Assembly (NCBI GenBank): GCA_002254565.1
Contig: NJEG01000015.1
Coordinates: 4,726 to 68,725 of the forward strand
DNA length: 64,000 bases
Reading direction: 5' to 3'
From: Candidatus Altiarchaeales archaeon ex4484_2
Lineage (GTDB): Archaea; Altiarchaeota; Altiarchaeia; IMC4; QMZM01
The notes below the pieces were generated by a model that made no database searches, was not told the DNA's origin, and saw nothing but the letters and a program-made list of their open reading frames with translations. Both the position numbers and the translations under genes were made by a program. Positions 2,433 through 63,407 of the stretch are shown here, in pieces. The first letter of the stretch is position 1, and every line of letters starts with the position of its first letter.

Positions 2433-3377
2433 ATGAACCAACTCAGGAAAGACTACCTTACGAACAAGTGGGTTATAATAGCCAAAGAAAGAGGTAAGAG
2501 ACCAAGCGACTTCAGGCATGAAGAAAAAAAAGAGGAGAGTAAACCTTGTTTCTTCTGCCCTGGAAAAGAGCACAGAACACCCCCTGAGATTGACAGGATA
2601 GAAAGAAATGGTAAATGGATTATTAGATGCTTTCCTAACAAGTTCCCAGCCACAACAGAAAAAAAAGAGATAACGGATAAGGGATTACTTAAGGGCATGG
2701 CCGCCTACGGCAGACATGAGGTAGTCGTTGAAACACCAATACACGGGGAAGAGCTCGGCAACCTTGCAGTGGAGCACATAGCCAAGGTTCTAAAGATGTA
2801 CACGAAAAGATTGGTTGAGTTAAAAAAAGACCCTGGCATAGAATACGTGTCCATATTCAAGAACAGAGGTAAGACAGCAGGTGCCTCACTTGCGCACTCC
2901 CACACCCAGATTGTTGCCCTCCCAATGGTTCCTGGGATAATACGGGAAGAAATGAAGATCTTACAGAAGCAGGGAGACTGTCCGCTGTGCAGGATAGGGG
3001 ATATTGAGGAGGGAAGAACTATTAGGGAAGATGATCATACCGTAGTAGTTGCCCCCTACGCCTCGCGTTTCCCCTTCGAGGCAAGGATTACGCCCAAAAG
3101 GCATGTGCCATCACTGGAGAAATTAAACAATAAAGAGATGGAATCTTTTGCCCTAGCACTTAAGGAGGTGCTTACAGCCCTCAACAAGAGCATCAACTAC
3201 CCCCCATACAACTACCACCTCCACCTGGGACCGGGGAGGGGGGACTTCCACATGTATCTGGAGCTGCTCCCCAGACTCTCAACTTGGGCGGGCTTTGAGT
3301 TAGGTAATGATATAATAATAAATACCATGCCTCCTGAGATGGCAGCAAAACACTACAGGGAAATTATTAAACAATAA
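2433..3377 (+). CDS. galT: galactose-1-phosphate uridylyltransferase-family nucleotidyl transferase (HIT superfamily)
   Basis: CFFCPG zinc motif and the active-site HSHTQ (HxHxQ) motif. The 314-aa length is typical. Confidence 0.8.
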   Translation: MNQLRKDYLTNKWVIIAKERGKRPSDFRHEEKKEESKPCFFCPGKEHRTPPEIDRIERNGKWIIRCFPNKFPATTEKKEITDKGLLKGMAAYGRHEVVVETPIHGEELGNLAVEHIAKVLKMYTKRLVELKKDPGIEYVSIFKNRGKTAGASLAHSHTQIVALPMVPGIIREEMKILQKQGDCPLCRIGDIEEGRTIREDDHTVVVAPYASRFPFEARITPKRHVPSLEKLNNKEMESFALALKEVLTALNKSINYPPYNYHLHLGPGRGDFHMYLELLPRLSTWAGFELGNDIIINTMPPEMAAKHYREIIKQ

Positions 3378-3411
3378 ATATTTAATCTACAAATTCAAAT
3401 GATTCAATAAG

Positions 3412-5142
3412 ATGGATTCAAACAAAATGATATTACCTGTCTTCATTGTTCTTGTTTTTTCAGCGACAGCATACTCAACAAGCCTTGAAAAAGAATGGTC
3501 TATAAACGTTAAAGGCAGTATACAGGACCTAATTGTTGCGGATGTTGATGGAGATAACATCCCAGAGATTGTTTTTTTCTTTAAGAACAACAACATCCAT
3601 AGAGATGACATCCTCTACGCACTGGATAATAAAGGAGGAGAGAGATGGCACCTGAATCTTGGTGATATAGAATCGGTTTATGTATCTGATTCGATGATTG
3701 AAGACCCCAGCACCCGAATCTTGGTAAGCTATGGGAAAACCAGCGAGGGGATAGAACAAGGCCATCTACTGATTCTGGATGGCGGAGGAAGGGAGGTATT
3801 GAGGTACCCCACCCCCGCGTTAGGTTCCACGCCCGTGATGTACAAGATGGAATCCGTTGACATAAACGGGAACGGATATAATGAGTTGATTGGAGGAACA
3901 AGGAAGGGTGTTTACGCCATAAACGACAGATTTACAGGGGAATTATGGACTTCAATGATCGGCCAACCTATAAGAGACTTCATACTCGAGGATATAGACT
4001 GCGACGGAATAACAGACATCATCTCTGAATCGCTTGGCGTAATCTATAATACAAACATCAAAAACGGCAGCCTTAGCTGGAAGATATCGACGGGAGATTA
4101 TATCAGCTCAGGGGATAATCAAACGACGGTAGAGAAAGATAAGGTTGTTGAAATACTTAAGGTGGGTGATGTCAGCCCACACCCTCACAAGGAGATAATC
4201 GCGGTCACATCCATGAATATATTCTTCATATACAACAGCAAGGGCAGTCTTATAAGTATTGGAGGAGACAGCAACGCAATACGGAGATATGTCAAAAACT
4301 ACAGCAATTACACCATCCATGAAGCAATAAGCGGCTACGGGAAAATAACAGCTTTAAGCCTCTATGACTTCAATGAAAACAGCCTCCAGGAATTTATTCT
4401 GGGAACAACCTCAGGGGTATATATCTGGGATATCCTCTCAGGTGAACACCAATTCAAAAACATTGGAGAAGTAAAGGCCATACAGAAAAGCCCTGATGGA
4501 CGGATATTTATATTAACAGAAAATGCAATCCATGAATTAGGCATAAACCAGGAGATAATAGAAACATATAGTTTAGGTGACAGCTATCAAAGAATCCATA
4601 TAGCTGACATTGATGGAATAGGTGGCCCAGAATTCATTTTGATAAAAGACAGGGATATATCAGTCTACTCAAAAAAAGAAACCCCAACAACAACCCTGGC
4701 TACGACAACCACAACGACCCGGGAAACCCCAACAACAACCCTGGCTACGACAACCACAACGACCCGGGAAACCCCAACAACAACCCTGGCTACGACAACC
4801 ACAACAGAACCGGAACACAAAAAGGAGGGAATAGACGCCTCAGATGTGCTGCTTGCGCTGATATCTATTGCATTGATTCTGGTGATTGCCAGACACAGTG
4901 TGGAAATCCTGAAAAAAAGAAGGAAGGTAAAGAAACCTGAGAAAGAGGAGGGTAAAAAAGAAATCGATATGCCAACGGAGGATGAGCTGAAGGCCTTGGA
5001 AAAGGAGATAGAAAAAAGAAAAAGAGAATACACAATTAAGAAATGGAAAGAGAAGGAATTAAGTGATAAAGAAAGAGAGCTAAGAGAGGAATGGGAGAAG
5101 AACGTAGATATAGTTGAAGAAGAAAAGAGAAAAAAGAGGTAA
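3412..5142 (+). CDS. surface protein: signal peptide, FG-GAP/VCBS-like beta-propeller repeats, Thr-rich linker, TM helix, K/E-rich cytoplasmic tail
   Basis: Repeated DxDGDG-type motifs (DVDGDNIPEIV, DINGNGYNELI, DIDCDGITDII, DIDGIGGPEFI). ETPTTTLATTTTTTR occurs 3 times. The hydrophobic segment LLALISIALILVIA is followed by KKRRKVKK. Confidence 0.6.
   Translation: MDSNKMILPVFIVLVFSATAYSTSLEKEWSINVKGSIQDLIVADVDGDNIPEIVFFFKNNNIHRDDILYALDNKGGERWHLNLGDIESVYVSDSMIEDPSTRILVSYGKTSEGIEQGHLLILDGGGREVLRYPTPALGSTPVMYKMESVDINGNGYNELIGGTRKGVYAINDRFTGELWTSMIGQPIRDFILEDIDCDGITDIISESLGVIYNTNIKNGSLSWKISTGDYISSGDNQTTVEKDKVVEILKVGDVSPHPHKEIIAVTSMNIFFIYNSKGSLISIGGDSNAIRRYVKNYSNYTIHEAISGYGKITALSLYDFNENSLQEFILGTTSGVYIWDILSGEHQFKNIGEVKAIQKSPDGRIFILTENAIHELGINQEIIETYSLGDSYQRIHIADIDGIGGPEFILIKDRDISVYSKKETPTTTLATTTTTTRETPTTTLATTTTTTRETPTTTLATTTTTEPEHKKEGIDASDVLLALISIALILVIARHSVEILKKRRKVKKPEKEEGKKEIDMPTEDELKALEKEIEKRKREYTIKKWKEKELSDKERELREEWEKNVDIVEEEKRKKR
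4678..4805 (+). repeat. 45-bp perfect tandem repeat (~2.8 copies) encoding the Thr-rich linker
   Basis: The unit gaaaccccaacaacaaccctggctacgacaaccacaacgacccgg sits at 4678-4722 and 4723-4767, with a partial third copy. Confidence 0.95.
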
Positions 5143-22629: not shown

Positions 22630-22704
22630 GGGCCCGTAGCCTAGTCTGGATAGGGCACCGGACTTCTAATCCGGAGATCGTGGGTTCGAATCCCGCCGGG
22701 TCCG
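22630..22704 (+). tRNA. tRNA-Arg (TCT)
   Basis: GGGCCCGTAGCCTAGTCTGGATAGGGCACCGGACTTCTAATCCGGAGATCGTGGGTTCGAATCCCGCCGGGTCCG folds as a cloverleaf with anticodon loop CTTCTAA. Confidence 0.9.
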
Positions 22705-22772
22705 CTCCGCCCTTTCTTTTGTAAAAGAAAGGGTAGGTTACCCAAAGAAAACAATTACTTTGGGAAAAAAGT

Positions 22773-22861
22773 AAGGATCGGATGGGTTGCCTTTCCTGGT
22801 CAGGAGACTGGGTATAAGGGTGGGGAAAGCACCCTTACCTAGCAATCCCATCGGGTCCGCT
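22773..22861 (+). other. structured tRNA-linked module A. It ends in a second, 16/18-identical copy of the tRNA-Arg 3' end.
   Basis: Starts with AAGGATCGGATGGGTTG. Contains the hairpin AAGGGTG-GGGAAAG-CACCCTT. Ends with CCCTTA...AATCCCATCGGGTCCGCT, versus AATCCCGCCGGGTCCGCT in the tRNA. Confidence 0.6.
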
Positions 22862-58246: not shown

Positions 58247-58406
58247 GGGGCTGTGGGGTAACCAGGCATCCTAGCGGGCTCCAGAATCAATGGAGCGCTG
58301 ATTTCCCGCAGGGGAGAGATGACGAAAAACAGGTCAGAGACCGATAAGTCTTGAAGAAACTGGATGGAGTGACCTGCCGATGGGGGTTCAAATCCCTCCA
58401 GCCCCA
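58247..58406 (+). tRNA. tRNA-Trp (CCA) with an ~87-nt intron at the canonical 37/38 position (intron ~58285-58371)
   Basis: Exon 1 is GGGGCTGTGGGGTAACCAGGCATCCTAGCGGGCTCCAG. Exon 2 is ACCTGCCGATGGGGGTTCAAATCCCTCCAGCCCCA. The anticodon stem GCGGG/CCTGC forms only after intron removal. Confidence 0.85.
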
Positions 58407-58440
58407 AGACTTTATTTTTTTATATGATAGGTGATAGAGA

Positions 58441-62284: not shown

Positions 62285-63172
62285 TCAGAGGTTTTGATAG
62301 ATATCTAATATGGAACCGAAGTTAAAAATATCGAACAGTGTTCTCTGCCTTTCCACCACCCTAACTATATCGGGCTCACCCCATATCTCTCCAAGCTCTT
62401 TCGCTTTATCAACCGCATCGTCCATGTTCCCCAGCTGATCAATCAGTCCGTAGTCTCTTGCATCGCTCCCCAGATAGATTGAGCCATCCGAGAGATTTCT
62501 TGTGTAAGAGTAGGAGAGGTTTCTGTTGGCTGCCACATCAGAGATGAAATTATGGTATATTTTATCCACCATGTGCTTTAGTTCCTCTTTTTCTCCCTCC
62601 TCCATAGGCCGGTAGGGGCTGCCTATATCTTTACTATCCCCTGATTTAATCACGGTTACATTAATCCCAAGTTTATCATATAATCCATAGTAGTGCTGTA
62701 GGCTCATTATAACACCTATGCTACCTGTCATGGAGTCCTGGTATGCTATAATCCAGTCTGCTGCTGAGGCAGCATAGTATGCTCCGGAGGCACCTACCTC
62801 ACCTATCCTTGCAACAACAGGTTTCCTGGTTTCCCTGACAGCCTCCATGAGTTCCCGGCTGGCTGAAACACCACCCCCGCCGGAGTTTATGTCCAGTATC
62901 ACTGCCTTGATTTCGTTGCTGGAGTCAGCGTACTCCAGTTTTCTCTTGATGTCGTCTACCTTGGCGCATGCTGGCACACCGGTCAGGAAGCTTCCGCTGC
63001 ATCCCTCCATCGTTATCTGGCCCTTCACGGGAATAACCAGGATTTTCTGACCTACCAGGGGCAACTGGTTCAGGTCCATCAACTCATCTACCATGAAATA
63101 CACCCCAACAGCTCCCAGAATAAGGAAACAAAGCATACCAGCAGCCAATAAAATCTTCCACCTGCGTTCCAT
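62285..63172 (-). CDS. sppA: signal peptide peptidase SppA (S49 family, 36K type)
   Basis: An N-terminal TM helix and S49 motifs (INSGGGGVSAS, GASGAYY, GSIGV). Confidence 0.85.
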   Translation of the reverse strand: MERRWKILLAAGMLCFLILGAVGVYFMVDELMDLNQLPLVGQKILVIPVKGQITMEGCSGSFLTGVPACAKVDDIKRKLEYADSSNEIKAVILDINSGGGGVSASRELMEAVRETRKPVVARIGEVGASGAYYAASAADWIIAYQDSMTGSIGVIMSLQHYYGLYDKLGINVTVIKSGDSKDIGSPYRPMEEGEKEELKHMVDKIYHNFISDVAANRNLSYSYTRNLSDGSIYLGSDARDYGLIDQLGNMDDAVDKAKELGEIWGEPDIVRVVERQRTLFDIFNFGSILDIYQNL

Positions 63173-63198
63173 TTTTTTTTATTTGAAGTCTTGGTTTT

Positions 63199-63312
63199 AT
63201 GCGGCTGTCGGGATTTGAACATAAGGGCGCCTTCCCCGCCCTCGCTCATCCCCCAGGGGGGATGGCGCGCAGAGAGCTTTGCTCTCTCGCGTATCAACCC
63301 ATCCGAGCCTTT
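63199..63312 (-). other. structured tRNA-linked module B. It ends in a perfect 22-nt second copy of the tRNA-Gly 3' end.
   Basis: On the minus strand it starts AAGGCTCGGATGGGTTG. It contains GC-rich hairpins, including GAGGGCG-GGGAAGG-CGCCCTT. It ends CCCTTATGTTCAAATCCCGACAGCCGCAT, and 63199-63220 equals 63333-63354. Confidence 0.6.
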
Positions 63313-63333
63313 CTCTCTCAAGAGATAGTTCGA

Positions 63334-63407
63334 TGCGGCTGTCGGGATTTGAACCCGAGTCGCTGGCTTGGCAAGCCAGAGTGATAACCAGACTACACTA
63401 CAGCCGC
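63334..63407 (-). tRNA. tRNA-Gly (GCC)
   Basis: The reverse complement GCGGCTGTAGTGTAGTCTGGTTATCACTCTGGCTTGCCAAGCCAGCGACTCGGGTTCAAATCCCGACAGCCGCA folds as a cloverleaf with anticodon loop TTGCCAA. Confidence 0.9.

Follow-up and report, generated by a model that had tools for sequence, protein, structure and literature searches.

The origin of archaeal tRNA introns and split tRNA genes is a long-standing question, and its leading idea, recombination with mobile elements that bear tRNA-like attachment (att) sites, has very few natural examples. [quoted passage not shown] Permuted tRNA genes have also been described in the red alga Cyanidioschyzon (PMC3978253), and EndA types and tRNA gene disruption have been treated in DPANN archaea (PMC5829648). 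It has been proposed that tRNA fragments and introns can arise when mobile elements integrate (Sugahara et al. 2012; PMC3293823). According to the summary given in PMC8371274, att sublocations of tRNA genes at the T-loop and at the 3' end are documented (Williams 2002), and an attP that contains an intron could serve as an intron vector; tRNA-Arg(TCT) is a frequent integration target (PMC8371274). Here we describe module B, a non-coding insert of 112 nucleotides (nt) between two copies of the tRNA-Gly 3' end, and its sister, module A, behind tRNA-Arg(TCT). Both lie in a 64,000-nt stretch (the window) of Candidatus Altiarchaeales archaeon ex4484_2 (GenBank assembly GCA_002254565.1, contig NJEG01000015.1, positions 4,726 to 68,725), and both carry a hairpin unit of about 43 nt that belongs to a cross-phylum, tRNA-associated and previously undescribed family. 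Loci of relatives are labelled L with a number, and taxon names are those written in the records of the metagenome-assembled genomes (MAGs).

Module B is akin to two known kinds of arrangement, tRNA att duplications and mobile BHB introns. As in attL/attR duplications of tRNA genes, the repeat runs from the T-loop past the 3' end, the upstream tRNA is intact, empty sites exist (L132; L138 and L142), and tRNA-Arg(TCT) is a target. The differences are that only about 62-193 nt lie between the repeats here, that this DNA is non-coding and holds no integrase, and that one small conserved hairpin unit is common to most of the cases. The repeat geometry and the empty site of an att duplication were found, but genes of an element between the repeats were not. 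The closest published model has an intron or fragment gained by recombination with a mobile element that bears an intron in its attP (PMC3293823; PMC8371274). As here, the tRNA disruption described in PMC3293823 has a tRNA fragment and intron-type sequence beside a complete tRNA, close relatives are heterogeneous, and recombination at the tRNA gene was proposed as the cause. That case, however, comes from one Caldiarchaeum population and involves an element of 1.8 kb that encodes a recombinase, together with a 5' tRNA fragment, whereas here a 3' part, a tiny insert and a cross-phylum unit are involved.

With archaeal BHB introns the family shares a canonical-position intron whose predicted fold would fit a BHB (L118), and near-identical sequence that interrupts the T-loops of many tRNAs in one genome. 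The unit in the window, in contrast, lies outside the tRNA, where splicing is unneeded; members of the family are found in either orientation and across several phyla, and the 3' exon is duplicated. L118 and the T-loop relatives do interrupt a mature tRNA, but module B does not, and no BHB could be drawn at the borders of the modules in the window. Like miniature inverted-repeat transposable elements and repetitive extragenic palindromes, the unit is short, non-coding, multi-copy, hairpin-forming and sometimes tandem or nested, but it lacks the usual terminal inverted repeats and a fixed short target duplication, is strictly tied to tRNA T-loops and 3' ends, and no cognate transposase was found. 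A lone tRNA 3' fragment after a GC-rich helix recalls split and permuted tRNA genes. Here, however, a complete tRNA lies directly upstream, the fragment starts at positions 53-58 (53-76 only, behind tRNA-Gly), and there is no orphan 5' partner; no extra 5' halves were found in the window, and the fragment is not a split tRNA 3' half.

An exact repeat of the tRNA-Gly 3' end encloses module B

A preliminary description of this DNA had reported a perfect 22-nt repeat on both sides of the interval. A search of the window confirmed that the 22-mer ATGCGGCTGTCGGGATTTGAAC occurs as an exact direct repeat (Table 1), and no third copy was found in the window with up to 3 mismatches allowed (shuffles expect 0). 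On the coding (minus) strand the repeat reads GTTCAAATCCCGACAGCCGCAT and consists of G53, the 7-nt T-loop, the 5-nt 3' strand of the T-stem, the 7-nt 3' strand of the acceptor, the discriminator A and 1 trailer nt. The earlier assignment to T-loop, T-stem and acceptor 3' strand was right, but its 2 trailer nt should be 1, the discriminator A having been miscounted as trailer. Every sub-element named for the 112-nt interval was present in the order and at the positions given. The insertion has a period of 134 nt, counting one repeat copy. Repeat copy 2 lies 27 nt upstream of the first in-frame SppA ATG (63172), the gene being called from the ATG at 63148. The tRNA-Gly, module B and the repeat were 100% identical in three independent assemblies (ENA ERZ23491052 and ERZ23491060, Logan SRR6301444), over a stretch of 510 nt that spans both repeat copies.

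The 5' motif of module B resembles the antisense of the tRNA acceptor plus T-stem 3' strand, and its predicted pairing partner is repeat copy 2. Between the repeats no credible open reading frame (ORF) was found, either in the 112 nt of module B or in the 137 nt of module A. A 77-aa ORF (63088-63321, minus strand) that is open across all of module B and the second repeat was taken as a chance product. In the compact unit, one reading frame is likewise open.

Empty and occupied sites in relatives

The gene order tRNA-Gly, SppA, S17e was kept across the Altiarchaeota examined. In L132 (SppA 72% identity) only 17 nt separate tRNA-Gly from the SppA start, which is the unoccupied site, and in the window the second repeat copy of module B occupies the native position just upstream of SppA. 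For module A an exact empty site was found in L138 (PurP 90% identity). It reads ...AATCCCGCCGGGTCCGCT followed by ATCAAGCCTTTATCCC...TTAGAAAAGGCTTGA, its junction ...GGGTCCGCT/ATCAAGCC... equals the sequence after the second module A copy of the window, and L138 corresponds to the window sequence minus 22707-22861. The insert after tRNA-Arg is also absent from L142 (82%). As read from these alignments, both modules are insertions accompanied by a duplicated tRNA segment.

Two further inserts of this kind were observed. At the same tRNA-Arg(TCT), L141 (84%) carries another insert of 62 nt with the perfect 23-nt repeat CGAATCCCGCCGGGTCCGTGGTA (L141 1355-1450); this insert did not match the unit model and folded no better than shuffles (z = -0.6). 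L141 comes from a different species and from a sample series shared with the window. In L098 (Altiarchaeota MAG234), tRNA-Met is followed by an A-type module, at a locus that is not orthologous. The end of this tRNA-Met is repeated over 17 nt, and over its first 58 nt the trailer shares about 98% identity with that of module A. The repeats of module B (22 nt), module A (18 nt), L098 (17 nt) and L141 (23 nt) all start in the T-loop (positions 53-58) and end 1-5 nt beyond the tRNA end. Because of these four cases, we conclude that small insertions that duplicate the segment from T-loop to 3' end (plus 1-5 nt) are recurrent and independent in this clade.

The state of module B varied among its nearest relatives. 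In L129/L130 (SppA 91%) a trace of the 5' motif was left, while the hairpin and the 3' copy were gone. In L131 (SppA 89%) module B was kept, with an extra unit nested in its last hairpin and a second copy that lacks the T-loop part; the shortened 20-nt repeat, ATCCCGACAGCCGCATCAAA, starts at position 59. The ancestral repeat of module B probably measured 26 nt or more. In a comparison of the window with L131, the module B core is identical at 76/78 positions, compared with 73% for SppA third codon positions, 65% for the trailer and 53% for the upstream spacer. The two differences lie in the hairpin CATCCCCC-CT-GGGGGATG: one is in the loop, and the other is a stem A>G change that keeps a U.G pair. 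Module B appears to be dispensable in this lineage and, in the window, to be an insertion outside tRNA-Gly function.

The nested second compact unit of L131 (1740-1815) consists of ACAACACAGGGATCGGATGGGTTGATA plus hairpin directly after ...GGAAGGCGC, with a 5' motif of the kind seen in module A (GGATCGG). Such nesting suggests unit-by-unit recombination.

The sister module A behind tRNA-Arg

The preliminary description had held the two modules to be homologous through the 5' motif and the last hairpin. This was borne out: in the window, exact matches to TCGGATGGGTTG were limited to 22778-22789 and 63295-63306, and the terminal hairpin to its two sites in modules A and B (chance expectation 0). 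These two features are in fact one contiguous unit of about 43 nt that is widespread in other archaeal phyla. The central parts do differ, as described, but not as a simple variable core. Analysis with a covariance model resolved module B into a 5' motif, two unrelated hairpins and the unit hairpin, and module A into a 5' motif without a hairpin followed by a second, degenerate but complete unit.

The layout described as common to the two different tRNAs was found again: tRNA, short hairpin or hairpins, 5' motif, GC-rich variable core, conserved hairpin, and a copy of the 3' end of the host tRNA. The idea of a fixed accessory of these tRNAs did not hold, the modules being insertions with empty sites in L132, L138 and L142. 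tRNA-His and tRNA-Trp had been said to lack the module, and the covariance model indeed found no further convincing unit in the window. The reservation that the module might be the residue of a known integrated element applied to its geometry, which is that of tRNA att sites, but no matching known element, integrase or published sequence was found.

The two repeat copies of module A are not identical. Copy 2 differs from copy 1 by GC>AT, which yields perfect pairing with AUGGG of the 5' motif. GC is present in the empty-site relative L138, and the upstream copy of module A equals the tRNA of the empty site.

A unit of about 43 nt across archaeal phyla

The conserved core consists of the 5' motif GGNNNGGAWGGGTTGATA and a 9-bp hairpin with the loop GGGAAGG, and the whole unit can be written NNNGGNNNGGAWGGGTTGATA-AGGGNG-GGGAAGG-CNCCCTTAT. 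A genome scan with the pattern AGGGNGGGGAARGCNCCCTT, using one genome per species and demanding the exact hairpin, gave at least 117 loci. The archaeal matches belong to MAGs named Aenigmatarchaeota, Micrarchaeota, Iainarchaeum, Altiarchaeota, Thermoplasmata, Methanobacteriota, Pyrohabitans (Hydrothermarchaeota) and 'uncultured archaeon'; they show complementarity at the N positions (C-G, A-T, T-A, T.G), and most of them have the 5' motif immediately upstream of their hairpin. The bacterial matches fall within a conserved alphaproteobacterial coding region, their N positions are not complementary, and they were set aside as unrelated.

From the genome scan and the covariance model together, at least 44 exact hairpins were collected in 38 sources (the window and 37 loci, from about 18 archaeal MAGs), and covariance model R1 gave at least 58 matches in 42 sources. 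The stem of the unit is 99.5% paired, with compensatory changes at two pairs, and its paired cells exceeded those of all 500 shuffles. Among the matches listed, tRNA T-loop or 3'-end sequence, sense or antisense, directly follows 23 of the 44 hairpins (a sense T-loop/3' part 11, a direct antisense T-loop 9, an antisense tRNA 3' end 3), and most of the remaining hairpins listed are also in or beside tRNAs. The unit almost always abuts tRNA sequence. It is short, non-coding and multi-copy: MAG AUK182 has at least 7 loci, L026, L042 and L072 hold tandem arrays, and L131 has the nested copy.

No recombinase, transposase or integrase common to the unit loci was found in the 37 loci; the ORF families that they share are RNA polymerase, ribosomal proteins and similar. 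Rfam 15 at permissive thresholds matched only tRNA (best other score 19.9 bits against a threshold of 65.7), and BLAST of the module against phage and plasmid collections gave no match. A scan of viral contigs with TCGGATGGGTTGN{25,55}GGGGAARGC gave 3 matches, all of them chance (coding or high-GC phage DNA), and a scan with the hairpin pattern gave 2 chance matches. In a metagenome scan for the hairpin followed by 6-7 nt and AATCC, 2 contigs were recovered, both of the L050/L109 lineage and both ending in the repeat. A literature search for the hairpin sequence found no paper.

Several tRNA T-loops of Aenigmatarchaeota AUK182 (L026, L042, L072, L102) hold one and the same array of about 126 nt, made of three units whose hairpin loops all differ; the array as a whole behaves as a repeated element in this genome. 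In L036 (MAG AUK050, 150-190) the loop is flipped relative to its flanks, with ATCAACCC after GGGAAGG, the opposite of the usual arrangement, and the palindrome spacer is evidently able to invert.

Unit copies inside tRNA genes

A 48-nt intron at 37/38 in L118 (MAG AUK189) is filled by the unit, which is antisense to the tRNA. The host has a Gln-type acceptor, and a cut after position 37 gives the anticodon CUG; the 'Pyl(cta)' call of ARAGORN at this locus was rejected as a placement artefact. In the minimum free energy (MFE) fold the anticodon loop pairs with the 3' end of the intron (CUCUGG:CCGGAG) beside a 3-nt AAA bulge. A canonical hBHBh' forms only if the last two G-C pairs are opened, and then comprises the 4 bp CUCU:GGAG, a GGA bulge, and GGU:ACC on the unit hairpin.

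Other copies interrupt the T-loop, as in L113, L104, L059, L026 and L015. Deletion of the unit restored ARAGORN-valid tRNAs for Leu-TAG (49 nt), Phe (60 nt), His (88 nt), Val (126 nt, three tandem units) and Thr (55 nt) in Aenigmatarchaeota and related MAGs. The orientation depended on the lineage, being sense in AUK182 and antisense in B50_G15 and two 'uncultured archaeon' MAGs of SRP141552/SRP141559. The T-loop borders would fit a relaxed BHB, in which U54-U55-C56-(R57) is predicted to face UGGA or a G/A-rich tract before 'AAU' plus the T-stem 3' strand, and the unit hairpin abuts the other bulge. Read by eye, the AUK182 copies show UUCA:UGGA with AAA and AAU bulges, and the antisense copies 3-4 bp only. 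We infer that the unit copies of DPANN and Thermoplasmata are spliced. No flanking repeat of at least 8 nt was found at the DPANN T-loop copies.

Broad-specificity EndAs and unexplained missing tRNAs have been reported in DPANN (PMC5829648). Of the 38 sequences scanned, comprising 37 archaeal loci and the window, 22 yielded no tRNA with standard ARAGORN, and the unit family offers an explanation for tRNAs overlooked by tRNA finders in DPANN MAGs.

Proposed recombination behind an intact tRNA, and alternatives

We propose with moderate confidence that recombination in the 3' part of the tRNA set a module of an intron family, together with a copy of the 3' exon, behind a tRNA that stayed intact. 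Donor DNA would carry an intron-type module followed by a tRNA 3' part, and a Campbell-type or att-type exchange within the segment from T-loop to 3' end would regenerate the complete tRNA upstream. The module and the displaced 3' segment would then end up downstream, like attL/attR of tRNA-targeting integrative elements. The recombinase would presumably act in trans, because the insert encodes no protein. With the crossover 3' of the intron-type module, as supposed for the window, the tRNA would be left intron-free, module plus 3' exon would form a downstream appendage, and module B would be dispensable and need no splicing. For module A the crossover would lie within CGGGTCCGCT, with a donor that had its own tRNA-like fragment; the GC>AT change, which is confined to the downstream copy, fits such a crossover and donor. 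In L050 the 3' end of a tRNA-Arg, with native tRNA-Arg flank, comes after a tRNA-Ser unit, an arrangement that would result from unit-by-unit recombination. An empty or excised allele of module B would have the junction ...GACAGCCGCAT joined to AAAACCAAG, and a circular form the junction CCCTTAT-GTTCAAAT...GCAT-CGAACTA.

Several points weigh against this proposal. No recombinase, integrase, or circular or donor form was found in the window, in the loci compared or in the viral, phage and plasmid searches, and the inserts, at 62-155 bp, are very small for a double-stranded circular intermediate. The high identity of the module B core relative to SppA third positions fits purifying selection as well as homogenisation. 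Both copy 2 substitutions in module A improve pairing with the 5' motif and may reflect selection on the helix, not the origin of the donor. The DPANN T-loop copies lack a flanking repeat of at least 8 nt, and one mechanism may not cover all contexts. Several of the BHB motifs of T-loop copies, read by eye, have only 3 of 4 central pairs. The census of at least 117 loci is biased, the genome scan having taken exact hairpins only.

In a wider and more tentative form, which we regard as possible but not probable, the unit would be a pan-archaeal, horizontally spreading BHB-intron element that moves as DNA with a mimic of the tRNA 3' exon. The place of the crossover would set the outcome, either an intron in the T-loop or anticodon loop, as in the MAGs of DPANN and Thermoplasmata, or, further 3', an intact tRNA followed by 'intron + 3' exon', as in Altiarchaeota. 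If so, the window shows the intermediate expected under models in which the integration of mobile elements gave rise to tRNA introns and to split tRNA genes, and the conserved 9-bp arms with their 7-nt asymmetric spacer could be the core site of some recombinase. Four states of the unit family can be told apart: an intron at the canonical position, an intron of the T-loop that may have either orientation, tandem arrays, and an ectopic 'intron + 3' exon' behind an intact tRNA. Filled and empty sites in close relatives make the recombination model testable, and module B may show how tRNA introns and tRNA fragments spread.

The main rival, a functional structured RNA, would account for some of the same data, although we consider it rather unlikely. 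The module and the second 3' copy would fold into several hairpins, and a tRNA-like acceptor/T-stem minihelix of 5' motif and 3' fragment would close the RNA. Transcribed together with tRNA-Gly and the downstream SppA-S17e-Elp3 genes, this RNA could have a stabilising or regulatory effect, or could serve RNase P or RNase Z as a tRNA-like signal for processing or punctuation. The folding data agree with this: the MFE fold of module B closes through that helix, as does that of module A, and also those of L098 and L050, with z-scores of -3.1 to -4.1 over the four. Between module A and L098 the helix changes (A-U to G-C and related) track the host tRNA, and GC>AT in copy 2 of module A makes the AUGGG pairing perfect. 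The conserved core, with both changes compatible with the hairpin, and the position of tRNA-Gly directly upstream of SppA across Altiarchaeota point the same way. However, the module is missing from the close relatives L129 (SppA 91%) and L138 (PurP 90%), the closing helix is weak in module B (about 4+3+2 bp) with one pair removed by G>A in L131, and L098 has no co-oriented downstream gene. The unit also occurs in both orientations inside tRNA genes elsewhere, against a strand-specific role of the conserved loop, and has no Rfam match.

The modules could instead be decayed scars of a large virus or plasmid that entered by a tyrosine integrase and lost its interior, so that attL, attR and a few hundred bp were left and the module had no identity of its own. 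The classic att signature, from T-loop to 3' end plus a few nt with an intact tRNA upstream, and the favoured target tRNA-Arg(TCT) (PMC8371274) agree with such an origin, as do the different contents of the window and L141 at the same tRNA. We find it improbable all the same. All 5 independent cases are tiny, about 62 to 193 nt between repeats, and 4 of the 5 keep the unit beside the downstream repeat, whereas random decay should vary sizes and contents. The unit is found without repeats inside tRNA genes of other phyla, neither an integrase fragment nor a mobile-element gene was seen nearby, and the phage, plasmid and viral-contig searches gave no match.

That module B is an active intron with an alternative 3' exon, 134 nt being spliced from the T-loop between the tRNA body and the downstream copy, is very improbable. 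Both copies are identical in module B, so either could complete the tRNA, and relatives of the unit sit in T-loop intron positions. But the upstream copy already completes the tRNA (68.7 bits), the second copy of L131 has no T-loop part, and the purine tract (UGGA or GRR) with which UUCA pairs in DPANN copies is missing from the junction CCCUUAU/GUUCAAAU, so that no BHB can be drawn. We give as little credence to a purely local duplication, in which a replication or repair error at the near-palindromic T-arm (fold-back, template switching) would have acted without a mobile element. Inserts do begin with antisense T-arm-like sequence and end with the sense T-arm (GGGATTT...GAATCCC in L141, the 5' motif in modules A and B), but the unit is near-identical over many phyla and loci, and the trailers of A-type modules behind different tRNAs of different genomes share about 98% identity. 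Although the related contigs L109, L127 and L128 end inside units, a repeat-resolution artefact of assembly has next to no probability in view of the identical region across both copies in three independent assemblies and of the homologous structure in L131 from another project.

Some known motifs and devices were also compared with the unit and rejected. A K-turn/L7Ae reading of GGGUUGA...UUUUGAACCC exists only with an antisense T-loop flank. For IS200/IS605-PATE (TTGAT beside a hairpin), the left flanks differ by orientation and there is a single conserved hairpin. In an integron attC, the order GTT...AAC would be the reverse of R''...R'. For Xer/dif, the spacer does not have ATAA/TTAT next to it, and the element is present in multiple copies (PMC2958812). 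A target-site duplication of fixed length does not agree with repeats of 17, 18, 20, 22 and 23 nt whose end points differ.

Feature coordinates and further observations

Table 1. Features of modules B and A and their host tRNAs in the window
Feature	Position	Strand	Evidence or remark
tRNA-Gly(GCC), intact, CCA not encoded	63334..63407	-	ARAGORN; Rfam tRNA 68.7 bits
Direct repeat copy 1, part of functional tRNA-Gly	63333..63354	-	exact match
Small trailer hairpin TCTC-TTGA-GAGA	63314..63325	-	poor conservation, 65% identity to L131
Module B, inserted, non-coding, 112 nt between repeats	63221..63332	-	empty site in L132, alignment
5' motif AAGGCTCGGATGGGTTGATA of unit; listed as AAGGCTCGGATGGGTTG(ATA)	63292..63311	-	
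GC-rich hairpin CGCGAGAGAGC-AAA-GCTCTCTGCGCG, specific to module B, identical in L131	63266..63291	-	
Hairpin CATCCCCC-CT-GGGGGATG	63247..63264	-	holds the sole two differences from L131
Conserved unit hairpin GAGGGCG-GGGAAGG-CGCCCTTA; GAGGGCG-GGGAAGG-CGCCCTT(A)	63222..63243	-	
Direct repeat copy 2, displaced tRNA-Gly 3' segment	63199..63220	-	
tRNA-Arg(TCT), host of sister module A	22630..22705	+	ARAGORN, Rfam
Module A repeat copy 1 AATCCCGCCGGGTCCGCT, A58 to 3' end + 2 nt	22689..22706	+	
Module A insert	22707..22843	+	exact empty site in L138
Module A trailer hairpins, two	22710-22733, 22741-22764	+	
Module A 5' motif without own hairpin	22773-22789	+	
Module A degenerate complete unit	22795-22838	+	its hairpin 22816-22837
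Module A repeat copy 2 AATCCCATCGGGTCCGCT, then native flank ATCAAGCC	22844..22861	+	

The window is archaeal in content, with two PurP paralogues, Elp3, a Hel308-type helicase and an intron-containing tRNA-Trp, and its nearest named SppA and PurP homologues are from Candidatus Altiarchaeales/Altiarchaeota MAGs. The neighbours of the modules are housekeeping genes (GT2, PurP, KaiC, SppA, S17e), and no integrase, transposase or virus-like gene was found among the neighbouring genes of either module. In L137, a distant Altiarchaeota relative, a gene of Cas4/Csa1 type (2680-3459, from Pfam marks) adjoins the SppA-S17e pair.

In this clade, small insertions have general hot spots in the spacers beside tRNAs. 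Unrelated hairpin-rich sequence was observed in the tRNA-Gly-SppA spacer of other Altiarchaeota (L135 1381-1500, L137 1285-1500; 120-215 nt across such cases), and L142 carries an insert of about 190 nt (1205-1395) upstream of tRNA-Arg.

A C/D-box guide is known from archaeal tRNA-Trp introns. tRNA-Trp(CCA) in the window (58247-58406, plus strand; Rfam 36.7 bits, ARAGORN in intron mode only) has an 87-nt intron at the canonical position, which holds GATGACGA and CTGA-like boxes, as expected for such a guide. The spacer between tRNA-Trp and the MBF1-like gene contains zero units in the window (58407-58440), and 2-3 degenerate units were seen in the orthologous spacer of L053 (Altiarchaeales B52_G2).

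Unit copies were also seen in other settings. In Iainarchaeum AUK092 (L023 7360-7460) a single compact unit lies between perfect 20-nt direct repeats, TTGCTGGAGATGATAAGAAC, in which neither Rfam nor ARAGORN recognised a tRNA; the repeat ends ...AAGAAC/C inside another hairpin, and ATAAGAACCCGCT occurs 3x nearby. In MAG AUK050, named Thermoplasmata, the units of L049, L061 and L090 lie in intergenic regions dense with the short repeated hairpins CCCCTTTTCTAAAGGG, CTTTCTTTCTAAGAAAGG, GCAACCGAAGGTTGC and GCCTCGCAGAGCGAGGC, an arrangement that looks like composite miniature repeats without a tie to tRNA.

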